Shown: positions 35,713 through 64,000 of the stretch, piece after piece
Layout of the letters: each line of letters starts with the position of its first letter
Numbering within the stretch: position 1 is the first letter of the stretch
Assembly: GCA_000004695.1 (NCBI GenBank)
Contig: CM000155.2
Location: 1,472,001 to 1,536,000, forward strand
Length of the DNA: 64,000 bases
Source of the DNA: Dictyostelium discoideum
Lineage: Eukaryota
Direction of reading: 5' to 3'
The notes under the pieces: generated by a model
Seen by the model: the letters and a program-made list of their open reading frames with translations, nothing else
Database searches by the model: none
Told to the model about the DNA's origin: nothing
Made by a program: the position numbers and the translations under genes

Positions 35713-35745
<33 letters not shown>

Positions 35746-44856: not shown

Positions 44857-45591
44857 TTTAATATATAATTCTCAAAAACATGTAATATCTAGTTTCGAAG
44901 AAAAAGTGAGACTTATTCATGGGAATTATCTCTAAAAAAAAAAAATAAAATAAAATAAAATAAACACTGCTCCAGTAAAAAACAAATATCTTTTTTATTT
45001 TTCTATTTTTATTTTTATAACTAAAAAAAAAGAAATAACCGACAATTTAGCACAAAATTTTTTTTTTTTTTTTTTTTTTCGCTAAAATAAATTGTGAAAA
45101 AACCTTATTTTAGATATTAATTAATTATTAATAATTAATAATAATATTAATTATTAATTATTAATTATTTCCAAAGCAAAGAAAATACTTTCATTATTTT
45201 AAGTTCTCTCTTTTATTATAACTTTTTTTTTTTTTTTTTACCTGTGATCAGACCTTCAAGGAATGTCCTTGTGTCTTTTCGGCGGTGTTTGTTTTTTTTT
45301 TTTTTTTTTTTTTTTTTTACCTGTGATCAGACCTTCAAGGAATGTCCTTGTGTCTTTTCGGCGGTGTTTGTTAAACGGTTTTATTTTTATTATTCAATTG
45401 TATTAAATTTTTTAAACTATATTATATCTTTCATTATAACTGAACATATATTAAAATTTATATTTTTTTTTTTTTTTTTTTGATATAAATAAACTATTGT
45501 AGTATACAATTAGTATGTTATTTTTATTTATTTATTTTAGGTTTTTTAGTTTTTGTGAATTTAAAATGGTATGTTATTTTAGATTAGGTAA

Positions 45592-46745: not shown

Positions 46746-46747
<2 letters not shown>
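45592..46747 (-). mobile_element. 5'-truncated, diverged TRE3-like non-LTR retrotransposon fragment (3' part of ORF2); its 3' UTR/tail may extend to about 45230
   Basis: The ORF of 375 aa parallels the C-terminal 350 aa of the adjacent full-length elements: KLKDPKGRDTMQRFHARCLPINHLHNKVCPICNNEMNNDPYGHLFFNC versus KIKDPKTRDTMFRFHARCLPINYLHNKQCPLCKEDMSKDPYGHLFFSC, and HAYWNIISLVIHQIWIWLC versus FAYRNLMALILHNIWIWIC. Amino-acid identity is only about 40-50%. It abuts the poly(A) tail of the next element. Confidence 0.55.
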
Positions 46748-46821
<74 letters not shown>

Positions 46822-46918
46822 TGGATTAACAAGATTGATATATGTCCATCTGTGTTAATACGAGTTTTATTTAATATTTATTTAAAGGCTTATCATTTAA
46901 GCTGAAGGGTTATTTTAA

Positions 46919-49825
46919 TCATATGAATTGATCAAAAGATATAATATTTGGGAGAGATGATTCTGGAATACAATAGTAATTAGCTGTAGTTTTTCTTAGC
47001 TTGATCGTTGAAGTGAGAAGGATCTTAGGATCTTTGAAGTTATTATGGTCTTTTGCTGATAAGTTTTTCAGATCTTTTGCTTTTTTGATGTATTCTAGAG
47101 TGGCCAATTTGTGCCATTTCTTTAGAAGGGAGCTGTATGATAGTGATTCATCTGTTAAAGGATCTTCACTGTATATTTGATTGCAAATCCAAATCCAAAT
47201 GTTGTGGAGGATAAGGGCCATTAGGTTTCTATATGCGAATGATCTGGTTAGATCATAGTCTATTGCTTTATAGTTCCATTCAAAGTATTCTTTGTGGAAT
47301 CTGTGGTTGGCGTAATCTGCATTCACTTCTTGATCTTTTTTGGCTGTCGGTGATAATTTTGGAGTTATTCTACTAATGAAATTGTTATTTTGCCTAATTC
47401 TTGTATGGTGCCAGTTTTTACCTTTGCCTGTGGTAATATAGATGAAATTTTTGAGTTTATTTATTTTTATGAATTGTTTTGTTTTCTTGCATGAGAAGAA
47501 CAGGTGACCGTATGGGTCTTTGCTCATATCTTCTTTGCAGAGTGGGCATTGTTTGTTGTGAAGGTAGTTTATTGGAAGGCATCTGGCATGGAATCTAAAC
47601 ATTGTATCTCTTGTTTTAGGGTCTTTTATCTTCAGTATGTTGTTGAAGAGTTGATTATAGCTGTAGCCTCTTAAGTTTAGAGATGATTGGAATTCCGTTT
47701 TAGGGATGGTTGGATTTTGGTCTTGAATTGTGGTATACCATTCTGCCAGTGAAAGTGGTTGTCCATTTTCGTTTTTTATGGATGTGAGATTATTGTTGAA
47801 GATTGCTTTTTTTATTCTTATTTTGTTCCATTCGTCTAAGTTTTCTTTTAGGTATCTGGATGTGAATTTGTTTTTTTGGATCTGATATTCCCAGCTTTTG
47901 TGATGAGATGAGTTTGTTTGTTTGGTTTCTAGTGCTAGGATGAACTGGTTTATGATCCAAAGTTTCTGCGCCAGTTGTCTCAATTCTATATTCCAAATGT
48001 TCCAGCCCCCTACTTTTAGTGGGTATCTTGCTCTTTTGGTTCTCATTAAATTAATAACTTGAAATCCACTAGCATTTTTGTTGTTTGGTGCCGATAAAAA
48101 CCATTCGACTAGTTTATTGATTTGGTTTAATTCCTCTTCCTTAAAGTTCTCTACATATGAATAGTAGGTTAATTTAGAGAGTGCGAATGCTTTGAGGATG
48201 TTGGTTTTGGTTTTGATTGTTGAGTCAGTGGTTTTCCATAGTACTAAGGATGATCTTATTGTGTTTAATATTTCTGGCATTTTTCTTGTTATCCCTTTGC
48301 CTGTGAAGAAGTATCCCAAGTATCTTTCTGGATTTGTAGATATTGGAATTCTTTGGTTGGTATTGTCTGGGTTGCCTATAAGAATTGATGAAGATTTGTC
48401 GATGTTTAGTTTTGAGGAAGTGGCTTTGCAAAATGAATTGAAGTGTTGTAGTACTAATTCAAGTTGTTGAGAGTCTGGGACCATTGAAGCCGAGTCGTCT
48501 GCAAAGCTTTGGAATTTCTCTCTGTGGTTGCTGTTGTTTAGAGGAAGGCCAGTAATTCGGTCATCTTGTAAAATTTTTCTAGCTAAAGCCTCTATTACAA
48601 GGACGAACAGGGTGGGTGATAGTGGATCTCCTTGTTTAACTCCTCTTTTGATCTCAAAGGGTATAGTAGTTCTACCATTAATTTCAATTCTTGCTTCAGA
48701 TTTGGTGAGTAGATTCATTATCAGGTTGATTATATTGGTTGGAATGTTGATGTGTTGTAGTGATCTAAGTATTGAACCGTGTGAGATCGAGTCAAAAGCT
48801 TTTTCGAAATCATATAGTGTAATTATTCCGTTAATTCTTTTATCATTACAATAGTTGATTAATTCGTTCATTGATATGATATTATCTAGAATGAATCTGC
48901 CTGGTACGAAACCTTTTTGATTGTGGTTGATCACTTTCGTTAGTATTGGGATTATTCTATTGTTTATTAGCTTTGAGTGGATTTTATATATACAATTAGC
49001 CAGTGTAATTGGTCTTCTGTTTTTGATTAGTTCGGGGTCTCCCTTTTTAGGTATCGTGATAATGAGGCCTTCTTTGTAATTTTTGCTAATTAGATGAGGA
49101 TTTCTTAGAGTGTCGTTGAATGCTGAGGCCAGTATTGGAGCTAGTTTTTCTTTGTGTGTTATGTAGAATAAGTTTGGAATTCCATCTGGACCTGGAGATT
49201 TGTGTGGGTTCAGTTGTTTTATTACTTCTAGGATCTCTTGTGAGGTGAATTCATTTTCAAGGTTGTCCCATGTTGAGTCCCTGGTCACTGTCCAATTTTC
49301 CAACATTTCGTAATGAGATGGTGGGTCATCTTCTTTGTAGTCATAAAGATTTGAGTAATATTTTACGTATTCTTCTTCGATCAATTCCTGTTTGTTAATT
49401 GTTCTACCTTGTGCATCTTTTACTGCGTTGATGGTGAAATCATTGTGTCTTTTCTTGATTCTCGCGGAGATGTACTTGAGTGAGGTTTCTTCGCAATAGT
49501 TGTTCAATTCTTGTTTAAGTTGTTCTTCTCTTTTTTTAGATTCATTTATTGCTGAAAGGGTTGCGAAGGCTTGGTCTTTAAATTCTGTCTCTAGTAGGGA
49601 GATTAGATTTTTGATGTTTGCCTTATTGTTGTAGTCGTTTTGTTTTTGAAATTCGGTGTATAGTTGTTTTATTTTGTTCAGTAAGCTGTTGAGTTGAGAG
49701 AAGGAAATAGAGTTATGGTTGGCTGACAGCTCCCTTGAATAATCGTTAAGTAGGAAGTCTATTTTCTTAAGCATTATGCTTGAGAGGATTGAGGATTTTT
49801 TTAATCTCCATCTGCGCTTGTTCAT
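46919..49825 (-). CDS. TRE3-like ORF2, reverse-transcriptase portion (968 aa; separated from the EN portion by a frameshift or stop in this copy)
   Basis: RT box QSFADDSASM (the YXDD-equivalent FADD) and the upstream conserved PKKGDPELIKNRRPITLANCIYKI... motifs. A C-terminal Cys/His region, CPLCKEDMSKDPYGHLFFSC, is present. Confidence 0.75.
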   Translation of the reverse strand: MNKRRWRLKKSSILSSIMLKKIDFLLNDYSRELSANHNSISFSQLNSLLNKIKQLYTEFQKQNDYNNKANIKNLISLLETEFKDQAFATLSAINESKKREEQLKQELNNYCEETSLKYISARIKKRHNDFTINAVKDAQGRTINKQELIEEEYVKYYSNLYDYKEDDPPSHYEMLENWTVTRDSTWDNLENEFTSQEILEVIKQLNPHKSPGPDGIPNLFYITHKEKLAPILASAFNDTLRNPHLISKNYKEGLIITIPKKGDPELIKNRRPITLANCIYKIHSKLINNRIIPILTKVINHNQKGFVPGRFILDNIISMNELINYCNDKRINGIITLYDFEKAFDSISHGSILRSLQHINIPTNIINLIMNLLTKSEARIEINGRTTIPFEIKRGVKQGDPLSPTLFVLVIEALARKILQDDRITGLPLNNSNHREKFQSFADDSASMVPDSQQLELVLQHFNSFCKATSSKLNIDKSSSILIGNPDNTNQRIPISTNPERYLGYFFTGKGITRKMPEILNTIRSSLVLWKTTDSTIKTKTNILKAFALSKLTYYSYVENFKEEELNQINKLVEWFLSAPNNKNASGFQVINLMRTKRARYPLKVGGWNIWNIELRQLAQKLWIINQFILALETKQTNSSHHKSWEYQIQKNKFTSRYLKENLDEWNKIRIKKAIFNNNLTSIKNENGQPLSLAEWYTTIQDQNPTIPKTEFQSSLNLRGYSYNQLFNNILKIKDPKTRDTMFRFHARCLPINYLHNKQCPLCKEDMSKDPYGHLFFSCKKTKQFIKINKLKNFIYITTGKGKNWHHTRIRQNNNFISRITPKLSPTAKKDQEVNADYANHRFHKEYFEWNYKAIDYDLTRSFAYRNLMALILHNIWIWICNQIYSEDPLTDESLSYSSLLKKWHKLATLEYIKKAKDLKNLSAKDHNNFKDPKILLTSTIKLRKTTANYYCIPESSLPNIISFDQFI

Positions 49826-49957
49826 CTGTATGTTGGGTAGAGTGAAAGTGGTTGATAGGAAGTTGTGATCTGATAGAGGTATGTCGTTAATTTTTGGGGG
49901 GATTAGGTTCCTTAGGTATAATTGGCTGTAGTTGATTAAGCTATTGTTAAGGTATAT

Positions 49958-50623
49958 TCAGTCTAGTCTCCTTTCCAAGATTCTTGTGAGGTTATTGTTT
50001 GTGTTGTGTATCGTTCTTGAGAAGGTGGGTCTTTTATTTAGTTGGTCCATATCCATTAGGTTATTTGAAATTCTGATGGCTTCGATTACTGTGGCCATCT
50101 CATCTGGGGATTGTGTTGTCAAGTTGCCTTGGTCATCATTTGATGTGTGATTGTCATTGAAGTCTAAACAGTTGAAGTCTCCTGCTATGATGTCGATGTT
50201 TTTATTAGGGTTAGACGTTAGGTTGTGGTATTGGTTGTTGAAGTGTTTGTTTAGTGTTGAAGCTAGTGTTTTTCTTTTATCAGGTTGGGCCGGGGCGTAT
50301 ATGGCCAAGATTCTCGTTGTGGTATCTTTTATTAGAATGTCTGATATTATTAGTCTACCTTCTATTATGAATATTGGTGAGAGTTTTATGTTTTGGTTGT
50401 TGTGGTTTAGTATTCCTATTCCGTTGCCTCTGTTGGTTGCGCTAATGATGGAGCCAGGGAATAGCTGGTGTGCTTGTGTTGCGTCGGCGTTGAGTTCATT
50501 GACTATGGTTAGTGCCAATGAGTTTGGGGGGGATTGGGATTTGATAAAGTCTGTTTTGTTTTTGAAGGAGGTGTCAGTGCCCCAACCTCTGACATTCCAT
50601 TGGTTGATTTTGATTACTACCAT
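49958..50623 (-). CDS. TRE3-like ORF2, apurinic-endonuclease-like N-terminal portion (221 aa, copy 1)
   Basis: The N-terminal WNVRGW and ...IIAGDFNC... motifs are typical of L1-type APE endonucleases. The same frame continues into the RT in copy 2. Confidence 0.65.
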   Translation of the reverse strand: MVVIKINQWNVRGWGTDTSFKNKTDFIKSQSPPNSLALTIVNELNADATQAHQLFPGSIISATNRGNGIGILNHNNQNIKLSPIFIIEGRLIISDILIKDTTTRILAIYAPAQPDKRKTLASTLNKHFNNQYHNLTSNPNKNIDIIAGDFNCLDFNDNHTSNDDQGNLTTQSPDEMATVIEAIRISNNLMDMDQLNKRPTFSRTIHNTNNNLTRILERRLD

Positions 50624-51882
50624 TATGAGATGATATCGATCTCCTCTTGGGAGTCGTATAGCTGCGGTTTGGATGGTGAAGGGTAGATACTCTCTATGAA
50701 GCTCTCAATGATTCCTTTACTTTCTTTTTTGACAGGTGTCTTAGGGGTGGATGGGATGTAAGGGTTGCTTCTATTTATTGTTGGTGAGAGTTGGGTGACT
50801 TCATTGTTTGAGTGGATTTCCTCGTTCTTGCGTTTATGTGATGGAGGGATGTTTAGTGTCTTCTCTCTGTTTTCCGAGGATGAATGGATGTTATTGCTCG
50901 TTTTGTTGGCATTGTCTTTTTGGATGGCGTTGGATGTTGTGGTAGTGGTTGTGGTGGGTTTGACAGATTGAGATTCTGCTGGGTTTTTGGGGGGAAGAGG
51001 TTGAGATGACTTTTTTGCTTGGGCTTTTTTCTCTTGGGGGTGATTGTTTTTCAGACTGATTGTTTGCTGGGGGTTGTTTGTTTGTTGTTGTGGTTTTGGT
51101 TGAGAGGATTTGATTGCTATCCTGTTTTGGATGTTGGGAGGATCATCTGTCATCTCATCTTCTAATGGTTCTTCCGTGTTGTTTGACTTCTCTACTTTCT
51201 TGTTTTTCTTTGNTGAGGAGTAGGTTTTGGTGGCCGTTCTGATGGTAAAGTTTGCGATTTCTGTAATGTGTTGGCCAGATTTCATTTGATCGCCTATTTT
51301 GCATTCTATTAGACCGAATACTATGAGGTGGTCGGTGGAGTATATAGTATTGTATATTGCATAGGGTATTTCTTCTGCAAAGGCAGTTTTGATGAGGGCG
51401 TCCACTATTCCTGCCTTTTCTCTGGGAATTCTTACTCTTCCTGTGAGGACGTGGAAGTCTCTACTGGAGGTGATGAAGGTTCCCAATTTGCTTCTATCTC
51501 TAATGATATTTAGGAGAGATTGTTCGTTTTTAATCATCAGGTGGATCATTTTTCTAGTTCCTTTGCCTATGTATATCTTGTCGAATGGGATATCGTAGTT
51601 TGAGAGTGTTTTTCTCATTTCTTCTAACCCCTTGAGATCCATTTTGGGGAATTCGAGTGTAATTGGGTAGAATCCGTTGTTCTTCTCATAGGTTGAGAGC
51701 GCAGTCATGTTCAATATGGTCTCGCAGTATTTGGAGATGTCTTTGAGGCCTATTGATAGTTTGGGGTAGGTCTCCTTTATCTCTGCTGTTTTTGTGGAGA
51801 ATTCCTTAATGAAGTTCTCCGATGCCTCGTCCATATGGGTGGAGGGGTTGGCCATTTTAGCCGCGTCTGCGTAGGAATTCAT
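50623..51882 (-). CDS. TRE3-like ORF1 protein (419 aa, copy 1)
   Basis: First ORF of the element. It has a basic Ser/Thr/Pro-rich C-terminal half. It is nearly identical to 55937..57190. Confidence 0.7.
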   Translation of the reverse strand: MNSYADAAKMANPSTHMDEASENFIKEFSTKTAEIKETYPKLSIGLKDISKYCETILNMTALSTYEKNNGFYPITLEFPKMDLKGLEEMRKTLSNYDIPFDKIYIGKGTRKMIHLMIKNEQSLLNIIRDRSKLGTFITSSRDFHVLTGRVRIPREKAGIVDALIKTAFAEEIPYAIYNTIYSTDHLIVFGLIECKIGDQMKSGQHITEIANFTIRTATKTYSSXKKNKKVEKSNNTEEPLEDEMTDDPPNIQNRIAIKSSQPKPQQQTNNPQQTISLKNNHPQEKKAQAKKSSQPLPPKNPAESQSVKPTTTTTTTSNAIQKDNANKTSNNIHSSSENREKTLNIPPSHKRKNEEIHSNNEVTQLSPTINRSNPYIPSTPKTPVKKESKGIIESFIESIYPSPSKPQLYDSQEEIDIIS

Positions 51883-52082
51883 CTCGATGGGATTCCTTTG
51901 AATCGGCGATTTGGTATGTTAGATCTGTAGATCGTGGTGGATTGGTGATTTTTTTTGAAAGATTGGTTAAAATTGACCGAGATTAAAGATAGAAAAGGAT
52001 GAATTACTTTTCACGTGTATCTTGTATCCTCTTGATCGCGGTACGGTTTTTTTTTCCAAATCTTTTGAGCAACTTGTCGTAG

Positions 52083-52127
<45 letters not shown>

Positions 52128-52224
52128 TGGATTAACAAGATTGATATATGTCCATCTGTGTTAATACGAGTTTTATTTAATATTTATTTAAAGGCTTATC
52201 ATTTAAGCTGAAGGGTTATTTTAA

Positions 52225-54801
52225 TCATATGAATTGATCAAAAGATATAATATTTGGGAGAGATGATTCTGGAATACAATAGTAATTAGCTGTTGTTTTT
52301 CTTAGCTTGATCGTTGAAGTGAGAAGGATCTTAGGATCTTTGAAGTTATTATGGTCTTTTGCTGATAAGTTTTTCAGATCTTTTGCTTTTTTGATGTATT
52401 CTAGAGTGGCCAATTTGTGCCATTTCTTTAGAAGGGAGCTGTATGATAGTGATTCATCTGTTAAAGGATCTTCACTGTATATTTGATTGCAAATCCAAAT
52501 CCAAATGTTGTGGAGGATAAGGGCCATTAGGTTTCTATATGCGAATGATCTGGTTAGATCATAGTCTATTGCTTTATAGTTCCATTCAAAGTATTCTTTG
52601 TGGAATCTGTGGTTGGCGTAATCTGCATTCACTTCTTGATCTTTTTTGGCTGTCGGTGATAATTTTGGAGTTATTCTATTAATGAAATTGTTATTTTGCC
52701 TAATTCTTGTATGGTGCCAGTTTTTACCTTTGCCTGTGGTAATATAGATGAAATTTTTGAGTTTATTTATTTTTATGAATTGTTTTGTTTTCTTGCATGA
52801 GAAGAACAGGTGACCGTATGGGTCTTTGCTCATATCTTCTTTGCAGAGTGGGCATTGTTTGTTGTGAAGGTAGTTTATTGGAAGGCATCTGGCATGGAAT
52901 CTAAACATTGTGTCTCTTGTTTTAGGGTCTTTTATCTTCAGTATGTTGTTGAAGAGTTGATTATAGCTGTAGCCTCTTAAGTTTAGAGATGATTGGAATT
53001 CCGTTTTAGGGATGGTTGGATTTTGGTCTTGAATTGTGGTATACCATTCTGCCAGTGAAAGTGGTTGTCCATTTTCGTTTTTTATGGATGTGAGATTATT
53101 GTTGAAGATTGCTTTTTTTATTCTTATTTTGTTCCATTCATCTAAGTTTTCTTTTAGGTATCTGGATGTGAATTTGTTTTTTTGGATCTGATATTCCCAG
53201 CTTTTGTGATGAGATGAGTTTGTTTGTTTGGTTTCTAGTGCTAGGATGAACTGGTTTATGATCCAAAGTTTCTGCGCCAGTTGTCTCAATTCTATATTCC
53301 AAATGTTCCAGCCCCCTACTTTTAGTGGGTATCTTGCTCTTTTGGTTCTCATTAAATTAATAACTTGAAATCCACTAGCATTTTTGTTGTTTGGTGCCGA
53401 TAAAAACCATTCGACTAATTTATTGATTTGGTTTAATTCCTCTTCCTTAAAGTTCTCTACATATGAATAGTAGGTTAATTTAGAGAGTGCGAATGCTTTG
53501 AGGATGTTGGTTTTGGTTTTGATTGTTGAGTCAGTGGTTTTCCATAGTACTAAGGATGATCTTATTGTGTTTAATATTTCTGGTATTTTTCTTGTTATCC
53601 CTTTGCCTGTGAAGAAGTATCCCAAGTATCTTTCTGGATTTGTAGATATTGGTATTCTTTGGTTGGTATTGTCTGGGTTGCCTATAAGAATTGATGAAGA
53701 TTTGTCGATGTTTAGTTTTGAGGAAGTGGCTTTGCAAAATGAATTGAAGTGTTGTAGTACTAATTCAAGTTGTTGAGAGTCTGGGACCATTGAAGCCGAG
53801 TCGTCTGCAAAGCTTTGGAATTTCTCTCTGTGGTCGCTGTTGTTTAGAGGAAGGCCAGTAATTCGGTCATCTTGTAAAATTTTTCTAGCTAAAGCCTCTA
53901 TTACAAGGACGAACAGGGTGGGTGATAGTGGATCTCCTTGTTTGACTCCTCTTTTGATCTCAAAGGGTATAGTAGTTCTACCATTAATTTCAATTCTTGC
54001 TTCAGATTTGGTGAGTAGATTCATTATCAGGTTGATTATATTGGTTGGAATGTTGATGTGTTGTAGTGATCTGAGTATTGAACCGTGTGAAATCGAGTCA
54101 AAAGCTTTTTCGAAATCATATAGTGTAATTATTCCGTTAATTCTTTTATCATTACAATAGTTGATTAATTCGTTCATTGATATGATATTATCTATAATGA
54201 ATCTGCCTGGTACGAAACCTTTTTGATTGTGGTTGATCACTTTCGTTAGTATTGGGATTATTCTATTGTTTATTAGTTTTGAGTGGATTTTATATATACA
54301 GTTAGCCAGTGTAATTGGTCTTCTGTTTTTGATTAGTTCGGGGTCTCCCTTTTTAGGTATCGTGATAATGAGGCCTTCTTTGTAATTTTTGCTAATTAGA
54401 TGAGGATTTCTTAGAGTGTCGTTGAATGCTGAGGCCAGTATTGGAGCTAGTTTTTCTTTGTGTGTTATGTAGAATAAGTTTGGAATTCCATCTGGGCCTG
54501 GAGATTTGTGTGGGTTCAATTGTTTTATTACTTCTAGGATCTCTTGTGTTGTGAATTCATTTTCAAGGTTGTCCCATGTTGAGTCCCTGGTCACTGTCCA
54601 ATTTTCCAACATTTCATAATGAGATGGTGCGTCATCTTCTTTGTAGTCATAAAGATTTGAGTAATATTTTACGTATTCTTCTTCGATCAATTCCTGTTTG
54701 TTGATTGTTCTACCTTGTGCATCTTTTACTGCGTTGATGGTGAAATCATTGTGTCTTTTCTTGATTCTCGCGGAGATGTACTTGAGTGAAGTTCTTCGCA
54801 A
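52225..54801 (-). CDS. TRE3-like ORF2 RT portion, copy 2 (858 aa from the first Met; the frame is interrupted relative to copy 1 near 54750..54800)
   Basis: Near-identical to 46919..49825. Confidence 0.7.
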   Translation of the reverse strand: MRRTSLKYISARIKKRHNDFTINAVKDAQGRTINKQELIEEEYVKYYSNLYDYKEDDAPSHYEMLENWTVTRDSTWDNLENEFTTQEILEVIKQLNPHKSPGPDGIPNLFYITHKEKLAPILASAFNDTLRNPHLISKNYKEGLIITIPKKGDPELIKNRRPITLANCIYKIHSKLINNRIIPILTKVINHNQKGFVPGRFIIDNIISMNELINYCNDKRINGIITLYDFEKAFDSISHGSILRSLQHINIPTNIINLIMNLLTKSEARIEINGRTTIPFEIKRGVKQGDPLSPTLFVLVIEALARKILQDDRITGLPLNNSDHREKFQSFADDSASMVPDSQQLELVLQHFNSFCKATSSKLNIDKSSSILIGNPDNTNQRIPISTNPERYLGYFFTGKGITRKIPEILNTIRSSLVLWKTTDSTIKTKTNILKAFALSKLTYYSYVENFKEEELNQINKLVEWFLSAPNNKNASGFQVINLMRTKRARYPLKVGGWNIWNIELRQLAQKLWIINQFILALETKQTNSSHHKSWEYQIQKNKFTSRYLKENLDEWNKIRIKKAIFNNNLTSIKNENGQPLSLAEWYTTIQDQNPTIPKTEFQSSLNLRGYSYNQLFNNILKIKDPKTRDTMFRFHARCLPINYLHNKQCPLCKEDMSKDPYGHLFFSCKKTKQFIKINKLKNFIYITTGKGKNWHHTRIRQNNNFINRITPKLSPTAKKDQEVNADYANHRFHKEYFEWNYKAIDYDLTRSFAYRNLMALILHNIWIWICNQIYSEDPLTDESLSYSSLLKKWHKLATLEYIKKAKDLKNLSAKDHNNFKDPKILLTSTIKLRKTTANYYCIPESSLPNIISFDQFI

Positions 54802-55828
54802 TAGTGTTCATGTTCAATTCTTGTTTAAGTTGTTCTTCTCTTTTTTTAGATTCATTTATTGCTGAAAGGGTTGCGAAGGCTTGGTCTTTAAATTCTGTCT
54901 CTAGTAGGGAGATTAGATTTTTGATGTTTGCCTTATTGTTGTAGTCATTTTGTTTTTGAAATTCTGTGTATAGTTGTTTTATTTTGTTTAGTAAGCTGTT
55001 GAGTTGAGAGAAGGAAATAGAGTTATGGTTGGATGACAGCTCCCTTGAATAATCGTTAAGTAGGAAGTCTATTTTCTTAAGCATTATGCTTGAGAGGATT
55101 GAGGATTTTTTTAATCTCCATCTGCGCTTGTTCATCTGTATGTTGGGTAGAGTGAAGGTGGTTGATAGGAAGTTGTGATCTGATAGAGGTATGTCATTAA
55201 TTTTTGGGGGGATTAGGTTCCTTAAGTATAATTGGCTGTAGTTGATTATGCTATTGTTAAGGTATATTCTGTCTAGTCTCCTTTCCAAGATTCTTGTGAG
55301 GTTATTGTTTGTGTTGTGTATCGTTCTTGAGAAGGTGGGTCTTTTATTTAGTTGGTCCATATCCATTAGGTTATTTGAAATTCTGATGGCTTCGATTACT
55401 GTGGCCATCTCATCTGGGGATTGTGTTGTCAAGTTGCCTTGGTCATCATTTGATGTGTGATTGTCATTGAAGTCTAAACAATTGAAGTCGCCTGCTATGA
55501 TGTCGATGTTTTTTTTAGGGTTAGACGTTAGGTTGTGGTATTGGTTGTTGAAGTGTTTGTTTAGTGTTGAAGCTAGTATTTTTCTTTTATCAGGTTGGGC
55601 CGGGGCGTATATGGCCAAGATTCTCGTTGTGGTATCTTTTATTAGAATGTCTGATATTATTAGTCTACCTTCTATTATGAATATTGGTGAGAGTTTTATG
55701 TTTTGGTTGTTGTGGTTTAGTATTCCTATTCCGTTGCCTCTGTTGGTTGCGCTAATGATGGAGCCAGGAAATAGCTGGTGTGCTTGTGTTGCGTCGGCGT
55801 TGAGTTCATTGACTATGGTTAGTGCCAA
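54746..55828 (-). CDS. TRE3-like ORF2 EN portion plus EN-RT linker, copy 2 (360 aa)
   Basis: This frame reads continuously through the point where copy 1 has its stop (...NLTRILERRLD|RIYLNNSI...). This shows the two copies carry different disabling indels. Confidence 0.65.
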   Translation of the reverse strand: MALTIVNELNADATQAHQLFPGSIISATNRGNGIGILNHNNQNIKLSPIFIIEGRLIISDILIKDTTTRILAIYAPAQPDKRKILASTLNKHFNNQYHNLTSNPKKNIDIIAGDFNCLDFNDNHTSNDDQGNLTTQSPDEMATVIEAIRISNNLMDMDQLNKRPTFSRTIHNTNNNLTRILERRLDRIYLNNSIINYSQLYLRNLIPPKINDIPLSDHNFLSTTFTLPNIQMNKRRWRLKKSSILSSIMLKKIDFLLNDYSRELSSNHNSISFSQLNSLLNKIKQLYTEFQKQNDYNNKANIKNLISLLETEFKDQAFATLSAINESKKREEQLKQELNMNTIAKNFTQVHLRENQEKTQ

Positions 55829-55936
55829 TGAGTTTGGGGGGGATTGGGATTTGATAAAGTCTGTTTTGTTTTTGAAGGAGGTGTCAGTGCCCCAACCTCT
55901 GACATTCCATTGGTTGATTTTGATCGATTACTACCA

Positions 55937-57190
55937 TTATGAGATGATATCGATCTCCTCTTGGGAGTCGTTTAGCTGCGGTTTGGATGGTGAAGGGTAG
56001 ATACTCTCTATGAAGCTCTCAATGATTCCTTTCCTTTCTTTATTGACAGGTGTCTTAGGGGTGGATGGGATGTAAGGGTTGCTTCTGTTTATTGTTGGTG
56101 AGAGTTGGGTGACCTCGTTGTTTGAGTGGATTTCCTCGTTCTTGCGTTTATGTGATGGAGGGATGTTTGGTGTCTTCTCTCTGTTTTCCGAGGATGAATG
56201 GATGTTAGTGCTCGTTTTGTTGGCATTGTCTTTTTGGATGGCGTTGGATGTTGTGGTAGTGGTTGTGGTGGGTTTGACAGATTGAGATTCTGCTTGGTTT
56301 TTGGGGGGAAGAGGTTGAGAGGATTTTTTTGATTGGGCTCTTTTCTCTTGGGTTGATTGTTTATCAGACTTATTGTTTGCTGGGTTGTTTGTTTGTTGTT
56401 GTGGTTTTGGTTGAGAGGATTTGATTGCTATCCTGTTTTGGATGTTGGGAGGATCATCTGTCATCTCATCTTCTAATGGTTCTTCCGTGTTGTTTGACTC
56501 TACTTTCTTATTTTTCTTTTGTGAGGAGTAGGTTTTGGTGGCCGTTCTGATGGTAAAGTTGGCGATTTCTGTATTGTGTTGGCCAGATTTCATTTGATCG
56601 CCTATTTTGCATTCTATTAGACCGAATACTAGGAGGTGGTCGGTGGAGTATATAGTATGGTATATTGCATAGGGTATTTCTTCTGCAAAGGCAGTTTTGA
56701 TGAGGGCATCCACTATTCCTGCCTTTTCTCTTGGAATTCTTACTCTTCCTGTGAGGACGTGGTAGTCTCTACTGGAGGTGATGAAGGTTCCCAATTTGCT
56801 TCTATCTCTAATGATATTTAGGAGAGATTGTTCGTTTTTAATCATCAGGTGGATCGTTTTTCTAGTTCCTTTGCCTATGTATATCTTGTCGATTGGGATA
56901 TCGTAGTTTGAGAGTGTTTTTCTCATTTCTTCTAACCCCATGAGATCCATTTTGGGGAATTCGAGTGTAATTGGGTAGAATCCGTTGTTTTTCTCGTAGG
57001 TTGAGAGAGCAGTCATGTTCAATATGGTCTCGCAGTATTTGGAGATGTCTTTGAGGCCTATTGATAATTTGGGGTAGGTCTCCTTTATCTCTGCTGTTTT
57101 TGTGGAGAATTCCTTAATGAAGTTCTCTGATGCCTCGTCCATATGGGTGGAGGGGTTGGCCATTTTAGCCGCGTCTGCGTAGGAATTCAT
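55937..57190 (-). CDS. TRE3-like ORF1 protein, copy 2 (417 aa)
   Basis: Near-identical to 50623..51882. Confidence 0.7.
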   Translation of the reverse strand: MNSYADAAKMANPSTHMDEASENFIKEFSTKTAEIKETYPKLSIGLKDISKYCETILNMTALSTYEKNNGFYPITLEFPKMDLMGLEEMRKTLSNYDIPIDKIYIGKGTRKTIHLMIKNEQSLLNIIRDRSKLGTFITSSRDYHVLTGRVRIPREKAGIVDALIKTAFAEEIPYAIYHTIYSTDHLLVFGLIECKIGDQMKSGQHNTEIANFTIRTATKTYSSQKKNKKVESNNTEEPLEDEMTDDPPNIQNRIAIKSSQPKPQQQTNNPANNKSDKQSTQEKRAQSKKSSQPLPPKNQAESQSVKPTTTTTTTSNAIQKDNANKTSTNIHSSSENREKTPNIPPSHKRKNEEIHSNNEVTQLSPTINRSNPYIPSTPKTPVNKERKGIIESFIESIYPSPSKPQLNDSQEEIDIIS

Positions 57191-57427
57191 CTCGATGGGA
57201 TTCCTTTGAATCGGCGATTTGGTAAATTAGATCTGTAGATCGTGGTGGATTGGTGATTTTTTTTGAAAGATTGGTTAAAATTGACCGAGATTAAGGATAG
57301 AAAAGGATGAATTACTTTTCACGTGTATCTTGTATCCTCTTGATCGCGGTGCGGTTTTTTTTTCCGTAGTTGTATATTCCACATACCTAAAATTTATAAA
57401 TTATAACTATAAAATTTACATAAAAAA

Positions 57428-57500
57428 TGGAGAAGAAGGGTATCGATCCCTTTACCTCTCGCATGCTAAGCGAGCGCTCTACCATCTGAGCTACATCCCC
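57428..57500 (-). tRNA. tRNA-Ala (anticodon AGC)
   Basis: The minus strand reads GGGGATG TA GCTC AGATGGTA GAGC G CTCGC TTAGCAT GCGAG AGGTA AAGGG ATCGATA CCCTT CTTCTCC A. The A box is TAGCTCAGATGG. The anticodon stem-loop is CTCGC-TTAGCAT-GCGAG. The ATCGATA T-loop occurs in eukaryotic tRNA-Ala genes. There is one mismatch (6:67) in the acceptor stem. No CCA is encoded. Confidence 0.75.
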
Positions 57501-57543
57501 TTTGATGAAAATGAAATGAAAGTCGTATAGAAACTTCTGTGAA

Positions 57544-58216
57544 ATGAGATCGAAAAAAACAAACAACAACAACAATCTCTTTTTTTGATTATTTCATTTT
57601 TCATATAAAAAAGACTTAAAAAACAAATAAATAAATAAATAAACTATTTTAAAAAGCCATCTTTTTACTTTATTGTAATTTATTATTTGTTTCGTTTTGA
57701 GAATTTTGCGTAGCAAAATTTTCAAAAAAAAAGCAAAAAATAATCAGATCGAAAAAAACAAACAACAACAACAATCTCTTTTTTTGATTATTTCATTTTT
57801 CATATAAAAAAGACTTAAAAAACAAATAAATAAATAAATAAACTATTTTAAAAAGCCATCTTTTTACTTTATTGTAATTTATTATTTGTTTCGTTTTGAG
57901 AATTTTGCGTAGCAAAATTTTCAAAAAAAAAGCAAAAAATAATCAGATCGAAAAAAACAAACAACAACAACAATCTCTTTTTTTGATTATTTCATTTTTC
58001 ATATAAAAAAGACTTAAAAAACAAATAAATAAATAAATAAACTATTTTAAAAAGCCATCTTTTTACTTTATTGTAATTTATTATTTGTTTCGTTTTGAGA
58101 ATTTTGCGTAGCAAAATTTTCAAAAAAAAAGCAAAAAATAATCAGATCGAAAAAAACAAACAACAACAACAATCTCTTTTTTTGATTATTTCATTTTTCA
58201 TATAAAAAAGACTTAN

Positions 58217-58269
<53 letters not shown>

Positions 58270-60280
58270 CGGGGAACCAAGTTAATTAAAAAATTTCCAA
58301 ATTTTTAACTTTTTAAGGAAAATTAAAAAGGATGGAAGGAAATTAAATGGAAATTCCCAACCACCCCCCCAAATATTAGGCAACCCAATGGCCTACAAAA
58401 AATAAGCAAATTTGGGGATAAAACTCATTTAAAAAAAAAACAATTCAAATACGTCTTAAACTTCATTCCCGAACCCGGCGATAAAATAAAAAAAGATTTA
58501 AAAAAAAGTTTGGCCAAAAAAAATGTTTTAATCAAAAAGCCCCTGTAAAAAAAAAAAAAAAAATAAAATGGGGTTTAGCATTTCAAGGAGAAGCAAAAAA
58601 AAATTGCGTTATCCCATTCCAAAAAAAAAAAAAATATATAATTTTTATCCCATAAAAAAAAAAAAAAAAAAAAAAAAAAGGTAAACCAACCCCTCTTTTA
58701 GAGACCCTGTAAAAAAAATAAAATAAAATAAAATGAGATCTAGCATCTCAAGGAGAAGCAAATAATAATTGCGTTATCCAATTCAAAAAAAAAAAATATA
58801 TATAATTTTACAATTACATTCAAGAAAAATCTGGAGGATCCAGAATCAATTGGGGAATAGAAATATTCAACAGACTAGACATTCCATAAACAGCCAACGC
58901 CATAGCCATTATTTGCGAAAACATCTGGANNNNNNNNNNNNNNNNNNNNNNNNNNNNNNNNNNNNNNNNNNNNNNNNNNNNNNNNNNNNNNNNNNNNNNN
59001 NNNNNNNNNNNNNNNNNNNNNNNNNNNNNAACAACCATCAACAACGATCTCTTTGTTTGATTATTTCATTTTTCATATAAAAAAGACTTAAAAAACAAAT
59101 AAATAAATAAATAACTATTTTAAAAAGCCATCTTTTTACTTTATTGTAATTTATTATTGGTTTCGTTTTGAGAATTTTGCGTAGCAAAATTTTCAAAAAA
59201 AAAGCAAAAAATAATCAGATCGAAAAAAACAAACAACAACAACAATCTCTTTTTTTGATTATTTCATTTTTCATATAAAAAAGACTTAAAAAACAAATAA
59301 ATAAATAAATAAACTATTTTAAAAAGCCATCTTTTTACTTTATTGTAATTTATTATTTGTTTCGTTTTGAGAATTTTGCGTAGCAAAATTTTCAAAAAAA
59401 AAGCAAAAAATAATCAGATCGAAAAAAACAAACAACAACAACAATCTCTTTTTTTGATTATTTCATTTTTCATATAAAAAAGACTTAAAAAACAAATAAA
59501 TAAATAAATAAACTATTTTAAAAAGCCATCTTTTTACTTTATTGTAATTTATTATTTGTTTCGTTTTGAGAATTTTGCGTAGCAAAATTTTCAAAAAAAA
59601 AGCAAAAAATAATCAGATCGAAAAAAACAAACAACAACAACAATCTCTTTTTTTGATTATTTCATTTTTCATATAAAAAAGACTTAAAAAACAAATAAAT
59701 AAATAAATAAACTATTTTAAAAAGCCATCTTTTTACTTTATTGTAATTTATTATTTGTTTCGTTTTGAGAATTTTGCGTAGCAAAATTTTCAAAAAAAAA
59801 GCAAAAAATAATCAGATCGAAAAAAACAAACAACAACAACAATCTCTTTTTTTGATTATTTCATTTTTCATATAAAAAAGACTTAAAAAACAAATAAATA
59901 AATAAATAAACTATTTTAAAAAGCCATCTTTTTACTTTATTGTAATTTATTATTTGTTTCGTTTTGAGAATTTTGCGTAGCAAAATTTTCAAAAAAAAAG
60001 CAAAAAATAATCAGATCGAAAAAAACAAACAACAACAACAATCTCTTTTTTTGATTATTTCATTTTTCATATAAAAAAGACTTAAAAAACAAATAAATAA
60101 ATAAATAAACTATTTTAAAAAGCCATCTTTTTACTTTATTGTAATTTATTATTTGTTTCGTTTTGAGAATTTTGCGTAGCAAAATTTTCAAAAAAAAAGC
60201 AAAAAATAATCAGATCGAAAAAAAACAAACAACAACAACAATCTCTTTTTTTGATTATTTCATTTTTCATATAAAAAAGG

Positions 60281-60286
<6 letters not shown>
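57544..60286 (+). repeat. Tandem array of a unit of about 190 bp (at least 10 units, head-to-tail, more than 98% identical). It lies at the 5' end of a TRE5-A-like element and is consistent with multimerised A-modules. It is interrupted by a low-quality segment (58216..58928) and a 101-N gap (58929..59029)
   Basis: The unit atcagatcgaaaaaaacaaacaacaacaacaatctctttttttgattatttcatttttcatataaaaaagacttaaaaaacaaataaataaataaataaactattttaaaaagccatctttttactttattgtaatttattatttgtttcgttttgagaattttgcgtagcaaaattttcaaaaaaaaagcaaaaaataa repeats with a period of about 190 bp from 57544 to 60286. The array starts 44-49 bp upstream of the tRNA 5' end. Confidence 0.8.
58929..59029. other. Assembly gap (101 N)
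   Basis: Run of n characters. The flanking 58216..58928 resembles a noisy copy of 60287..60650 plus 62340..62740. Confidence 0.99.
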
Positions 60287-60341
<55 letters not shown>

Positions 60342-62047
60342 GGAACCAAGTTAATTAGAAAATTTCCAGATTTTTAACTTTTTAAAGAAAAATAAAAAAG
60401 ATAGAAAGAAAATAAAATGAAAATCACAAACAACACCACAAATATTAAGCAACACAAATGCCTACAAAAAATAAGCGAAATTGTGGATAAAACTCAATTA
60501 AAAAAAAAACAATTCAAATACGTCATAAACATCAATCACGAACCAGACGATAAAATAAAAAAAGATTTAGAAAAAAGTTTGGACAAAAAAGATGTTTTAA
60601 TCAAAAGTAATAATACATTCAAAATTCTCACAGACAGTATTAGTACAGTAATCTATTTTGTAAATATGTTTGATGCAGAATTAAAAGGACAATTTATAAC
60701 CACTATAAGACCAAAAAATATGTATACAGATTTTGATTGGTATAAATCACTCACAGAAATAGAATGGGTAATAGAAAATGAAGGATGTAAACTAATTAAA
60801 TCAGAAATTAAAGGCGAAACTCTAATTATCAAAACAGTGAAAAGAGTCGTAGAAGAATTTGACACTATCATTGAACTAGACAATCTAACATTAATTGGAC
60901 ACTCCAACAAAGGATGGAGAGATCAAACCTCATTACCAGAAAATCAAGAAGAAAACAAAAATAAAAAACAATCAGATGAACAACAACCACAATCTACATC
61001 AGAACAAATACCAAAACAAGGAAAAAGAACAATCATTATCCCACCAATCACATCCTCATCTAATGATAAAACATTTATGGCCCTAGATGATACAGCTCAA
61101 AAGGTAATAGAAGCATCACTAGAAAACGTAGATGAACTAACAAGAATAGAGAATGAGATCAATACACAATCGATAAACAATCAAGAAATTAAAACAAAAT
61201 CAGAAAAACCTATCGAACCACCATCTCCATACAATACACCAATAAAACAACACGGCGAAACAAAGGGACTAACAACGGAAGAAAAACTTAGAGAGGCAAA
61301 TGATATCTTCGACTTCACCAGCCCAAACACTGATGCAATAAGAAAAATAGAATTCCCACTTTCAATCCCTTCAAATCAATGGTTCTTCTCCTCTCCAATA
61401 AAACATATCATGAGTTTCAGCCCAACCTATGGTACACCATCGAAAATTATCGATTCACCAAGTAAATTGTTAAACACACCAAAAAAGAAACAACAAGACA
61501 AAACAAACAAGACCAACAAAACACCAGTCAAACCAAAATTGGGTGAATATGGACAAAAAAGCATAAAAACAAAAATGGATGAAGATATAGACAACTTCAA
61601 CAAGGAAATTCTAAAACAAATCAATAAATCAAAAAACCCCACAAACACACAAGACCAACAACACAACGAACAAAGTAAAGATCAGTTAGAAGACAAAATA
61701 AACCAGAAACTTCAAAAGGTAGATAAAAATCTACCCCAAATAAAACTATAAAGAAAAACACAATAAGAATAGGTGTTTGGAACGTCCAAGGATCCAACAC
61801 CATCCAATCTGCCAGCATAATAAACACCGTTTTAGACAACAACAAGCTGGACGCAGCACTTCTAACTGAAACAAATATAAAAACAAATAAAATTTACTCA
61901 ATAAATCAACAATATAAAAACAAAATAACACACCACGCACCAATTGATAAAACAGGACAAGGGGTGTCACAAATCATCATCAACACCCGCAATAGAACTT
62001 CCTAAACATCTCAAAAAATACAATAATTCACTCAGTACTTTCTATAA

Positions 62048-62107
<60 letters not shown>

Positions 62108-63032
62108 CAAGTTAATCAGAAAAATAAAAAAGATAGAAAGAAAATAAAATGAAAATCACAAACAACACCACAAATATTAAGCAACACAAATGCCTACAAA
62201 AAATAAGCGAAATTGTGGATAAAACTCAATTAAAAAAAAAACAATTCAAATACGTCATAAACATCAATCACGAACCAGACGATAAAATAAAAAAAGATTT
62301 AGAAAAAAGTTTGGACAAAAAAGATGTTTTAATCAAAAAGACCCTGTAAAAAAAAAAAAAAAAATAAAATGAGATCTAGCATCTCAAGGAGAAGCAAATA
62401 ATAATTGCGTTATCCAATTCAAAAAAAAAAAAATATATATAATTTTAATCCAATAAAAAAAAAAAAAAAAAAAAAAAAAAGGTAAACCAACCCCTCTTTT
62501 AGAGACCCTGTAAAAAAAATAAAATAAAATAAAATGAGATCTAGCATCTCAAGGAGAAGCAAATAATAATTGCGTTATCCAATTCAAAAAAAAAAAATAT
62601 ATATAATTTTACAATTACATTCAAGAAAAATCTGGAGGATCCAGAATCAATTGGGGAATAGAAATATTCAACAGACTAGACATTCCATAAACAGCCAACG
62701 CCATAGCCATTATTTGCGAAAACATCTGGAGAGGAAGAAACAAGAAAATCCACGAAGGAATAACACTCAAAAACTTAAGAAAACAACTACTAGTACACGA
62801 ACTAAAGAAAACTCAAACAGCAGCTTGGGAAAGAACAAAAAACAACATATACAAACTAATCAGACAAGAAAAAAAAGCAACCAACAACGAACAAATAAAA
62901 AAATTCAAAAACATCATCTCCCTACAACTCGAAAGATTTAGCAAACACTGGAACTCACCACTACACACAGTAGCACTACCATCAAACCTCAACAAATATA
63001 TTACGTCTCTAAATACACTCTACACCCCCCAA

Positions 63033-63075
<43 letters not shown>
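60287..63075 (+). mobile_element. TRE5-A-like (tRNA-gene-targeted non-LTR retrotransposon) body. It has a B-module-like leader, intact ORF1, an ORF2 truncated after about 85 codons and followed by a poly(A) tract, then rearranged 5'-leader and 3'-module fragments ending in a poly(A) tract at about 63040..63075
   Basis: A-rich coding strand. The leader ccAggaaccaagttaattagaaaatttcc... recurs at 58266, 60338 and 62103, and partly at 63190. ORF1 spans 60417..61751. The next frame, overlapping the ORF1 stop, reads IRIGVWNVQGSNTIQSASIINTVLDNNKLDAALLTETNIK, an APE-endonuclease N-terminus, and stops at about 62008. Units of about 130 bp, ggtaaaccaacccctcttttagagaccctgtaaaa...gagatctagcatctcaaggagaagcaaataataattgcgttatccaattc, recur at 58679, 62470, 63413 and, in part, elsewhere. 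They are C-module-like. The 3' segment 62600..63039 precedes the terminal poly(A). Family assignment is from recalled TRE5-A architecture, not alignment. Confidence 0.55.
60417..61751 (+). CDS. TRE5-A-like ORF1 protein (444 aa)
   Basis: Intact ORF immediately 3' of the tandem array and leader. It has a Lys/Gln/Thr-rich, basic C-terminal half. A second, 5'-only copy (62149..62349, 66 aa, identical N-terminus) lies downstream. Confidence 0.6.
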   Translation: MKITNNTTNIKQHKCLQKISEIVDKTQLKKKQFKYVININHEPDDKIKKDLEKSLDKKDVLIKSNNTFKILTDSISTVIYFVNMFDAELKGQFITTIRPKNMYTDFDWYKSLTEIEWVIENEGCKLIKSEIKGETLIIKTVKRVVEEFDTIIELDNLTLIGHSNKGWRDQTSLPENQEENKNKKQSDEQQPQSTSEQIPKQGKRTIIIPPITSSSNDKTFMALDDTAQKVIEASLENVDELTRIENEINTQSINNQEIKTKSEKPIEPPSPYNTPIKQHGETKGLTTEEKLREANDIFDFTSPNTDAIRKIEFPLSIPSNQWFFSSPIKHIMSFSPTYGTPSKIIDSPSKLLNTPKKKQQDKTNKTNKTPVKPKLGEYGQKSIKTKMDEDIDNFNKEILKQINKSKNPTNTQDQQHNEQSKDQLEDKINQKLQKVDKNLPQIKL

Positions 63076-63078
<3 letters not shown>

Positions 63079-63371
63079 ATACAACCTTAAAAGGCACTTG
63101 TAATATACAATAAAATTAATAAAATGAGATATATCTCAAGAAGAAGCAACTAAAAATTGCGTTATTCTATTCAAAAAAAAAATATATATAATTTTAATGC
63201 CTACAAAAAATAAGCGAAATTGTGGATAAAACTCAATTAAAAAAAAAACAATTCAAATACGTCATAAACATCAATCACTAACCATACGATAAAATAAAAA
63301 AAGATTTAGAAAAAAGTTTGGACAAAAAAGATGTTTTAATCAAAAGTTATAATACAATTCAAAATTCGAAA

Positions 63372-63416
<45 letters not shown>

Positions 63417-64000
63417 TAAACCAACCCCTCTTTTAGAGACCCTGTAAAAAAAAAAAAAAAAATAAAATGAGATCTAGCATCTCAAGGAGAAGCAAATAAT
63501 AATTGCGTTATCCAATTCAAAAAAAAAAAAATATATATAATTTTTTTTTATAAACAAATAAATAAATATTTGAATCCACAATTCAAAAAAAAAAACAAGT
63601 TATTAAAAAAATATTAAAGATAAGATAATTCCAGATCAAAATGTATCAAATTTTCCCTTTTGATGTAATGGTACTCTCTGTAGGTAATAACCTAAAGATG
63701 TTTATTACATTTTTGTAATGAATAGAAGTTTAGAAGGAGGGACAAAGGTGGAATTAGATATGTGAAAAAAAAAAGATTTTTTAAAGATTAGGTAATGTTC
63801 AGTTTTATTTTTATTTTAATATTTTTTTTTACAAATAGTATTTTGAAATAGTAATTTTGTTTCTTTTATTATTACTTGTCGAACTGGAGGAGATGGAGGT
63901 GAAACATCTGATTGTTTTCTTTGAATATTTAAATTTTTTATTAAGTGATCTCGTTACATCTTTTATTTCCTTTAATTGAATCTATTTGAATTGCTATTGA

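Follow-up and report, generated by a model that had tools for sequence, protein, structure and literature searches.

The tRNA-Ala(AGC) gene in this stretch of Dictyostelium discoideum DNA has very probably been the reference point for two classes of non-LTR (L1-like) retrotransposons that target tRNA genes, with TRE5-A upstream of it, an age-ordered stack of TRE3 elements downstream, and TRE5 material at the right end that came instead from a tRNA-Gly(GCC) gene. Within the window (the whole 64-kb stretch analysed), we counted at least four TRE3-type events downstream of the tRNA-Ala gene and at least one TRE5-A event upstream, while a second assembly held at least two TRE5-A events with the target-site duplication (TSD) of the Ala site. 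These counts bear out an initial annotation in which one tRNA gene had been struck from both sides. The TRE5-A upstream is oriented opposite to the gene, and the TRE3 elements downstream are oriented like it. The annotation's figure of at least four independent hits also holds in number, once the second array and distal TRE5 pieces are excluded from it.

The tRNA-Ala(AGC) gene and its neighbours

ARAGORN called a single tRNA in the 64-kb window, the 73-nt tRNA-Ala(AGC), and Rfam matched it over the full RF00005 model (positions 1-71) with 58.1 bits against a gathering score of 29. All 73 nt are identical to two paralogues at loci L006 and L014 of the second assembly (GCA_054883475.1), and this conservation, together with the A and B boxes, the T-run terminator and the G3:U70 pair, gives the gene the hallmarks expected of a functional one. 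An external B box was also sought at the locus and none was detectable. The window as a whole is extremely AT-rich.

One could still read the tRNA-like sequence as a pseudogene or a chance neighbour, with the elements having arrived for unrelated reasons, given one U6-U67 mismatch in the acceptor stem and an A at position 54. We consider this next to impossible, as the sequence scores twice the Rfam gathering threshold, the T6 terminator is present, the identical sequence occurs at three genomic loci with TRE5-A 46-49 nt upstream of all three, and the examined copies of both families that have a tRNA gene in reach all keep the same spacing. The initial annotation had staked its claim of a real tRNA-Ala(AGC) gene on a tRNA caller not returning a pseudogene or nothing at all, and with the ARAGORN call, the Rfam score and the identical paralogues that claim stands.

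Table 1. Features of the tRNA-Ala(AGC) locus and of the adjoining right-hand cluster, in window coordinates.
Feature	Position	Strand	Details
Joint flanks of TRE3-C-like fragments	45209-45222 and 45427-45440		GTTATAAT[G/A]AAAGA
Two TRE3-C-like 3'-terminal fragments	45223..45426	-	abutting; third TRE3 family; 108 nt + A27 and 52 nt + A17
TRE3-B-like element	45463..46735	-	5'-truncated; second TRE3 family; last 375 ORF2 codons, 3' UTR, A19
TRE3 copy 2 TSD	46743-46747 plus tail A residues, and 52058-52066		AAAAGATTT(GG)
TRE3 copy 2	46748..52057	-	same family as copy 1, older; 5,241 bp + A69
TRE3 copy 1 TSDs	52079-52088 and 57366-57375		GTAGTTGTAT, 10 bp; at poly(A) end and 5' end
TRE3 copy 1 (probably TRE3-A)	52089..57365	-	full length; 5,242 bp + A35, total 5,277 bp
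TRE3 copy 1 ORF1	55937-57190	-	417 aa
TRE3 copy 1 ORF2			APE-RT-zinc knuckle, broken by frameshifts
Pol III terminator of tRNA-Ala	57422-57427		T6
tRNA-Ala(AGC) gene	57428..57500	-	ARAGORN and Rfam; 73 nt; A box TAGCTCAGATGG; B box GGATCGATACC; alanine identity pair G3:U70
Spacer between tRNA-Ala and TRE5-A TSD	57501-57533		33 nt
TSD of TRE5-A insertion(s) at tRNA-Ala	57534..57547	+	CTTCTGTGAAATGA; abuts A-module array; unique in window
TRE5-A 5' end	57548..58267	+	three full 199-bp A-module units, 72-nt partial unit, A51 run into B-module; TRF, BLAST vs A unit
Unreliable stretch	58268..59029	+	low-quality, collapsed copy of 62106-62730; B-module, C-module, Gly-type TSD, A26, C-module, TRE5-C-like ORF2 end
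Gly-type TSD within unreliable stretch	58797-58809		
100-N gap	58930-59029		
TRE5-A.2-type non-autonomous element	59030..62446	+	5' end cut by gap; at least 6.4 A-modules, A53, B-module, ORF1, about 95 ORF2 codons, A60, B, shortened C, oligo(A)
TRE5-A ORF1	60417-61751	+	444 aa
Gly-type TSD closing TRE5-A.2 element	62434-62446		
Three older 5'-truncated TRE5 units	62447..63544	+	each closes with oligo(A) + TATATATAATTTT
TRE5 unit	62447-62610		A26 + C-module
TRE5 unit	62611-63195		TRE5-C-like ORF2 end, A40, diverged C-module
TRE5 unit	63196-63544		TRE5-A.1 3' end (B, A46, C)
Unique right flank	begins at 63545		

To see whether the two families behave alike elsewhere, we drew on 16 loci from the second D. 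discoideum assembly, GCA_054883475.1, found by searching with the encoded proteins. Seven other tRNA genes (His, two Val, Ser, two Ala and Gly) have an element with an identical TRE5-A ORF1 at 45-51 nt upstream, always in the orientation opposite to the tRNA and with A-module arrays of 1.5 to 21.5 copies. At each of the eight loci that share the A-module, element and tRNA gene are arranged head to head across a spacer of 45-51 nt. Six other copies of the TRE3 family represented by copies 1 and 2 are found about 61-155 nt downstream of tRNA genes (two Ser, Leu, Asn and two Tyr), always in the orientation of the tRNA and as tandem pairs at two of the loci. The initial annotation had taken the spacings at tRNA-Ala to be those described for position-specific TRE5 and TRE3 integration, which agrees both with these other tRNA genes and with the published ranges.

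An age-ordered stack of TRE3 elements downstream

Following the minus strand away from tRNA-Ala, one meets T6 and 52 nt of spacer, the TSD ATACAACTAC, TRE3 copy 1 and the same TSD again, then 21 nt of flank, TRE3 copy 2, the TRE3-B-like element and the two TRE3-C-like fragments. The 5' end of copy 1 at 57365 lies 62 nt past the tRNA 3' end in the same orientation, and its TSD GTAGTTGTAT occurs exactly twice in the window, at the two ends of the element, where about 0.10 occurrences would be expected by chance; a full-length TRE3-like 5' end about 62 bp downstream and a clean 10-bp TSD had both been proposed beforehand. We reconstructed the empty site by removing the elements and one TSD copy each, which put the insertion points at about +62, about +83 (the 5' end of copy 2), roughly +85 to +105 and roughly +120 to +140, with all TRE3 target sites no more than about 140 nt from tRNA-Ala. 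This placement, in the same transcriptional orientation as the gene, falls in the window of 40-150 bp downstream that has been reported for TRE3 insertion (PMC5911963).

Copies 1 and 2 have the structure of non-LTR elements, with an ORF1 of 417-419 aa, an ORF2 whose start lies in a TAATG overlap, in the -1 (that is, +2) frame, poly(A) tails (A35 and A69) and TSDs. The protein searches returned a strong RVT_1 match (E = 7.7e-34), a weak Exo_endo_phos match that is below the Pfam cutoff (E = 8.9e-4) and a zinc-knuckle motif of the form CX2C...HX4C (CPLC...H...C). Support for the TRE3 identification comes from this structure and from the six additional family members found downstream of other tRNA genes. 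The ORF1 proteins of the window repeats are 97-99% identical to D. discoideum AX4 proteins, which places the DNA in this species. Database hits in D. discoideum carry only the names 'hypothetical protein' or 'reverse transcriptase domain'.

The two full-sized copies differ in their distance from the copies at L010-L014, which are practically identical to one another and therefore mark a recently active master. Copy 1 is 99.62% and copy 2 98.34% identical to these master copies (98.3% to each other), and because of this gradient the copy nearest the gene is the younger one, in keeping with repeated insertion into one short target beside the tRNA.

Beyond copy 2, the ORF of the TRE3-B-like element shares 98.7-98.9% identity with the C-termini of P0020-P0022 and 38% with the ORF2 of the copy-1 type; its 5' boundary is uncertain within 46720-46742, and a search for a TSD of this fragment found no convincing one. 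The TRE3-C-like fragments were recovered by Tandem Repeats Finder (TRF) as a 79-bp unit in 1.9 copies. Their 3' module also ends elements with long APE/RT ORFs at L010 and L011 (of which only the L010 copy was sized, roughly, at about 4.7 kb), and at L013 a 50-nt copy of the module is enclosed by a perfect 15-bp TSD.

The subfamily names used here (TRE3-A, TRE3-B, TRE3-C and TRE5-C) rest on length and copy number. Copies 1 and 2 are probably TRE3-A, judging by a length of 5,234-5,242 bp and the highest copy number (a protein cluster of 79 members). The 375-aa fragment is probably TRE3-B, as it belongs to the second-largest family, and the third family is probably TRE3-C, at about 4.7 kb versus a published 4,734 bp; the published consensus lengths of the other two are 5,229 bp for TRE3-A and 5,279 bp for TRE3-B.

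TRE5-A upstream and the origin of the right-hand cluster

On the other side of the gene, the first TRE5-A base is 57547/57548, as set by the exact match to the repeat unit, and stands 46-47 nt from the tRNA-Ala 5' end in a head-to-head arrangement. TRE5 insertions have been reported 44-54 bp upstream of tRNA genes in opposite orientation (PMC5911963), and the position and orientation of TRE5-A integration are also defined in PMC5391098, where 98 of 405 nuclear tRNA genes carry TRE5-A. Tandem Repeats Finder delimited one array at 57543-58241 (3.5 copies) and another at 59030-60310 (6.4 copies), both with 98% matches and a period of 199 bp, which replaces the 190 bp given in the initial annotation; its estimate of about 44-49 bp between the TRE5-A-like 5' end and the tRNA agrees with our measurement. 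BLAST searches with the A unit revealed that the order A(n), partial A unit, poly(A) and B recurs at eight other loci. Trustworthy TRE5-A sequence adjoining tRNA-Ala in the window is confined to the first 0.7 kb, and the body and tail are visible only in the other assembly.

Published qPCR primers for TRE5-A ORF1 (PMC4559204) support the assignment to TRE5-A, as they match an ORF that goes with this A-module. Within this 444-aa ORF, Rep-109 is matched exactly at 60861-60889 and Rep-108, with one extra base, at 60522-60548. The ORF2 primer Rep-75 matches nowhere in the window, as expected from the ORF2 deletion here; in an alignment with a full-length copy from another locus, ORF2 of the element right of the gap is cut to its first ~95 codons and last ~58 nt. 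Aligned with the TRE5-A.1 3' end, the BC junction of the same element lacks 70 nt and retains 82 nt of C. The published TRE5-A.2 has an AB-ORF1-BC composition with a large ORF2 deletion, a 72-bp BC deletion and about 87 bp of C-module left (PMC3159450), and going by these two deletions the post-gap element is a TRE5-A.2. The modular layout A-B-ORF1-ORF2-B-C-oligo(A) can be followed through an A unit of 199 bp, a duplicated B-module and a terminal C-module, with published values of 200 bp for the A-module (PMC3159450), which the 199-bp unit fits, and 51 kDa for ORF1 (PMC5911963), which 444 aa fits. L003 has a full-length version of TRE5-A; the window has 5' stubs, TRE5-A.2 and truncated copies.

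Most of this TRE5 sequence lies to the right of an unreliable stretch. Compared with clean copies, the B part of that stretch is 86.5% and the C part 89% identical, and the remainder is 100% identical; the error-rich portion is 58268-58645 (86-89% identical to clean sequence). A 5'-type B-module there runs straight into a 3' BC junction without ORF1, and an exact duplicate of 62481-62730 follows. Oligo(A) plus TATATATAATTTT ends four clean units right of the gap as well as one clean and one degraded copy before it. Comparison with L007 and with the locus orthologous to that of tRNA-Ala (M, below) ruled out '...AAAATATATATAATTTT' as the end of the C-module, since it is oligo(A) followed by the TSD.

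That repeated TRE5-A hits on tRNA-Ala produced all the TRE5 sequence at 57.5-63.5 kb, both A-module arrays included, would accord with the whole material lying on the upstream side in the correct orientation and with the known occurrence of sequential TRE5-A tandems. However, sequential hits at one site must share a TSD, and while the units end in TATATATAATTTT, none of them ends in the tRNA-Ala TSD CTTCTGTGAAAT, nor does the window hold a second copy of CTTCTGTGAAATGA. At L007, TATATATAATTTT makes up the 13-14 nt that separate the tRNA-Gly(GCC) spacer from the A-module array, and window positions 62503-64000, unique right flank included, are 98.7% identical to L007 7900-9379 in the cluster upstream of that tRNA-Gly(GCC). 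The true distal partners of the Ala TSD, with a different unique flank, are found in GCA_054883475.1 at M, the orthologous locus built by merging L015 and L008: here two TRE5-A elements have the Ala-type 12-14-mer after their oligo(A) tails, and the unique flank with a ribonucleotide reductase gene comes next. An origin of everything at tRNA-Ala is thus highly improbable, and by these TSD comparisons the TRE5 material right of about 58.3 kb arose at tRNA-Gly(GCC), a gene outside the window, while CTTCTGTGAAATGA is confirmed across the two assemblies as the TSD of the tRNA-Ala site. Because of the Gly-type TSDs, tRNA-Ala explains the repeats at 45.2-58.2 kb and not the last 5 kb, so that the suggestion that this gene accounts for the repeat-dense right third holds for the former interval and fails for about 58.3-63.5 kb. 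For the same reason, annotation and counts of hits per tRNA gene should not treat the region as one locus, and caution is due for the reference right of about 58.3 kb, which belongs to the cluster of another tRNA gene.

Sequence from the tRNA-Gly(GCC) cluster may have come to adjoin tRNA-Ala in either of two ways. The L007 left flank and the tRNA-Gly gene are absent from the window, and the join between tRNA-Ala-type and tRNA-Gly-type sequence falls inside TRE5-A sequence, where the window is unreliable. We lean slightly towards an assembly collapse or mis-join at the 100-N gap, and prefer such an artefact to a real inversion because of the poor sequence quality at the join. A real join, made by ectopic recombination between convergent TRE5-A.2 copies that inverted 383 kb in the sequenced strain when compared with that of GCA_054883475.1, is a tentative but serious possibility: L007 and M lie on a single contig of the other assembly, about 383 kb apart and with their TRE5-A.2 copies in inverted orientation, and a crossover between them predicts exactly the order of the window (tRNA-Ala, 5' part of the element, Gly-type 3' part, Gly right flank). 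The other strain is itself rearranged at this element, with a deletion that carries inverted filler. Yet error-rich sequence, a collapsed B-module join without ORF1, a duplicated contig end and the 100-N gap all fall at the junction, and an assembler cannot orient a segment between inverted repeats longer than its reads, so a mis-join would look the same.

The rearrangement in the other strain concerns the tRNA gene itself. M is colinear with window positions 32022-56081 and then jumps to 60312, with the 5' 1.28 kb of copy 1, tRNA-Ala and the A-array replaced by 21 nt of inverted TRE5-A ORF1 sequence. The complete two-sided arrangement is therefore present in one of the two assemblies, and the other is without the tRNA-Ala gene. 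The perfect TSD of copy 1 shows that the window keeps the tRNA side in its intact, ancestral form. That real structural change between strains would comprise both events, namely the 383-kb inversion between the TRE5-A.2 copies of tRNA-Ala and tRNA-Gly and the loss of tRNA-Ala from the second strain (a 4-kb deletion that joined TRE3 to TRE5-A with inverted filler), seems to us rather doubtful.

A probable scheme of integration and comparison with known systems

The observed positions, orientations, TSDs, poly(A) tails, 5' truncations, identity gradient and recurrence of the same spacing at other tRNA genes indicate how the locus was very probably built. TRE5-A integrated with its A-module promoter repeats facing the tRNA 5' end across a 46-47-nt spacer, duplicating the target CTTCTGTGAAATGA, and TRE3 integrated downstream in the tRNA orientation, repeatedly and into the same short stretch. 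Each new TRE3 landed between the gene and the older copies and so pushed these outward, which left a stack ordered by age, from young to old, as copy 1 (+62), copy 2 (about +83), the TRE3-B-like element and the TRE3-C-like fragments (about +120 to +140). From the literature, integration is likely to have proceeded by target-primed reverse transcription with the ORF2 endonuclease and reverse transcriptase, and TRE5-A may have been tethered via ORF1-TFIIIB contacts and would have needed an intact B box. For TRE3 the reference point would be a B box, and at this gene it would have to be the internal one, as an external B box was not detectable.

According to an earlier study (PMC5006619), 61% of D. 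discoideum tRNA genes have a TRE and 13% have both a TRE5 and a TRE3, and sequential targeting gives rise to tandems. Given this occupancy and the published TRE5 and TRE3 spacings, the two-sided arrangement is already known and is common, at about one in eight D. discoideum tRNA genes. In a compact genome, the locus gives a textbook case of retrotransposons inserting at set positions beside Pol III genes, and illustrates the layering that results when new copies always settle beside the gene.

Set against TRE5-A (formerly DRE) of D. discoideum, the elements here agree in the 199-bp A-module at the 5' end, in a B-module in which ORF1 starts and which recurs in the 3' UTR, in a 3' end of C-module then oligo(A), in the 444-aa ORF1 matched by published primers, and in the head-to-head placement of element and tRNA 5' ends, 46-47 nt apart, with a TSD of 12-14 bp; the post-gap copy further shares with TRE5-A.2 the defining large ORF2 deletion and the roughly 72-bp BC deletion. 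They differ in having the A-module as tandem arrays, which hold at least 3.4 and at least 6.4 copies in the window and 1.5-21.5 at other loci, a description of which we sought in the accessible literature and did not find, and in that the body of the copy adjoining tRNA-Ala is not reliably assembled. Relative to TRE3-A (formerly Tdd-3) and other D. discoideum TRE3 families, we saw no structural difference: copy 1 has 5,242 bp against the published 5,229-bp consensus, two ORFs with ORF2 in the -1 frame, the domain order APE-RT-zinc knuckle, a poly(A) tail, TSDs of 9-11 bp, tandem copies and the orientation of the tRNA at 62 and about 83 nt downstream. ORF2 frameshifts are present in the window TRE3 copies and absent from those of the other assembly. 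Yeast Ty3 and Ty1 likewise use Pol III-transcribed genes as safe landing sites, and Ty3 and TRE5-A both depend on TFIIIB and TFIIIC (PMC5911963). The yeast elements are, however, LTR elements that use an integrase and insert upstream only and at other distances, whereas insertion downstream of tRNA genes, as seen here for TRE3, is confined to dictyostelids (PMC5911963).

Chimerism or inversion at the right end of the window

The reference shows either a chimera or an inversion across TRE5-A.2, the non-autonomous TRE5-A form (58268-59029; also 59030-64000 when set against L007, the TRE5 cluster upstream of tRNA-Gly(GCC) in the second D. discoideum assembly, GCA_054883475.1). The 100-N gap is preceded, within 58268-59029, by an error-rich, collapsed duplicate of 62106-62730, and to the right of this gap all sequence has the TSD and unique flank that belong to the tRNA-Gly(GCC) locus; in the second assembly this locus is inverted and 383 kb distant. 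The window also holds one TRE5 unit (see table) that is missing from the L007 cluster, which is 98.7% identical elsewhere.

The tRNA-Ala locus in the second assembly

In the orthologous locus M (contig JBTAPE010000034.1; merged from L015 and L008) neither the tRNA-Ala gene nor any of the A-module array is present, and TRE3 copy 1 (the full-length copy nearest that gene) is short of 1.28 kb; the junction, at M 20428-20447, corresponds to window 56082-60311. A 21-nt piece of TRE5-A ORF1 in inverted orientation takes the place of the missing region, and the junction reflects either a TE-associated deletion of the tRNA gene or else an error of assembly.

In the window, ORF2 of TRE3 copy 1 is interrupted by 4 inserted nt directly past its start (55915-55955) and by another frameshift near 54.77 kb (about 54746-54801); the same copy reads through in the other assembly, giving 1,059 aa. 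Single N residues occur at 51213 and 58216, and it may be that part of these N residues and frameshift differences are sequencing errors in the reference.

A DNA transposon, a transposase-domain ORF and short TRE3 fragments

The 3,463-bp DNA transposon is polymorphic as an insertion, because the other assembly has the exact empty site; Pfam gave no match for its 336-aa ORF. Just beyond the edge of the TRE3 stack lies the 173-aa ORF with a transposase domain, at whose position the annotation of the other assembly has a 237-aa gene.

Several TRE3-C-like insertions show extreme 5' truncation, retaining merely 50-110 nt of the 3' end plus poly(A). Two such fragments in the window adjoin directly, and because no TSD intervenes, this arrangement suggests a template jump or insertion into the older poly(A) tail.

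Transposable-element features in the window and in loci of the second assembly (L010, L011, L013)
Feature	Position	Strand	Characteristics
DNA transposon, 3,463 bp	35510-38972		terminal inverted repeats (TGTTGTAGGGAATTTTC...); 5-bp TSD (TCTTT)
173-aa ORF	44335-44856	+	DDE_Tnp_4 / DDE_Tnp_1 transposase domain, E = 1.5e-11
TRE3-C-like fragments	45223-45426		two, abutting
TRE3-C-like fragment	L013 9415-9505		perfect 15-bp TSD (TGTTATATTTGTATT)
TRE3-C-like fragment	L010 20600-20700		
TRE3 copy	L011 9801-9855		own 5' terminus directly duplicated (25 nt, AAAAAAACCGCACCGCGATCAAGAGGAT twice)
Extra TRE5 unit	62447-62610		AATCCAAT, A26, full C-module, Gly-type TSD (target duplication of the tRNA-Gly locus)

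A-module arrays of TRE5-A

Tandem arrays of such variable length, built from the A-module (promoter), had no description that we found in the accessible literature. Among TRE5-A elements with identical ORF1 the arrays differ greatly, with 1.5, 1.5, 2.2, 2.4, 8.5, 8.5 and 21.5 copies (L001-L008 and window 57548-60310 considered), and every array closes with an identical partial unit and a poly(A) run, followed by the B-module.
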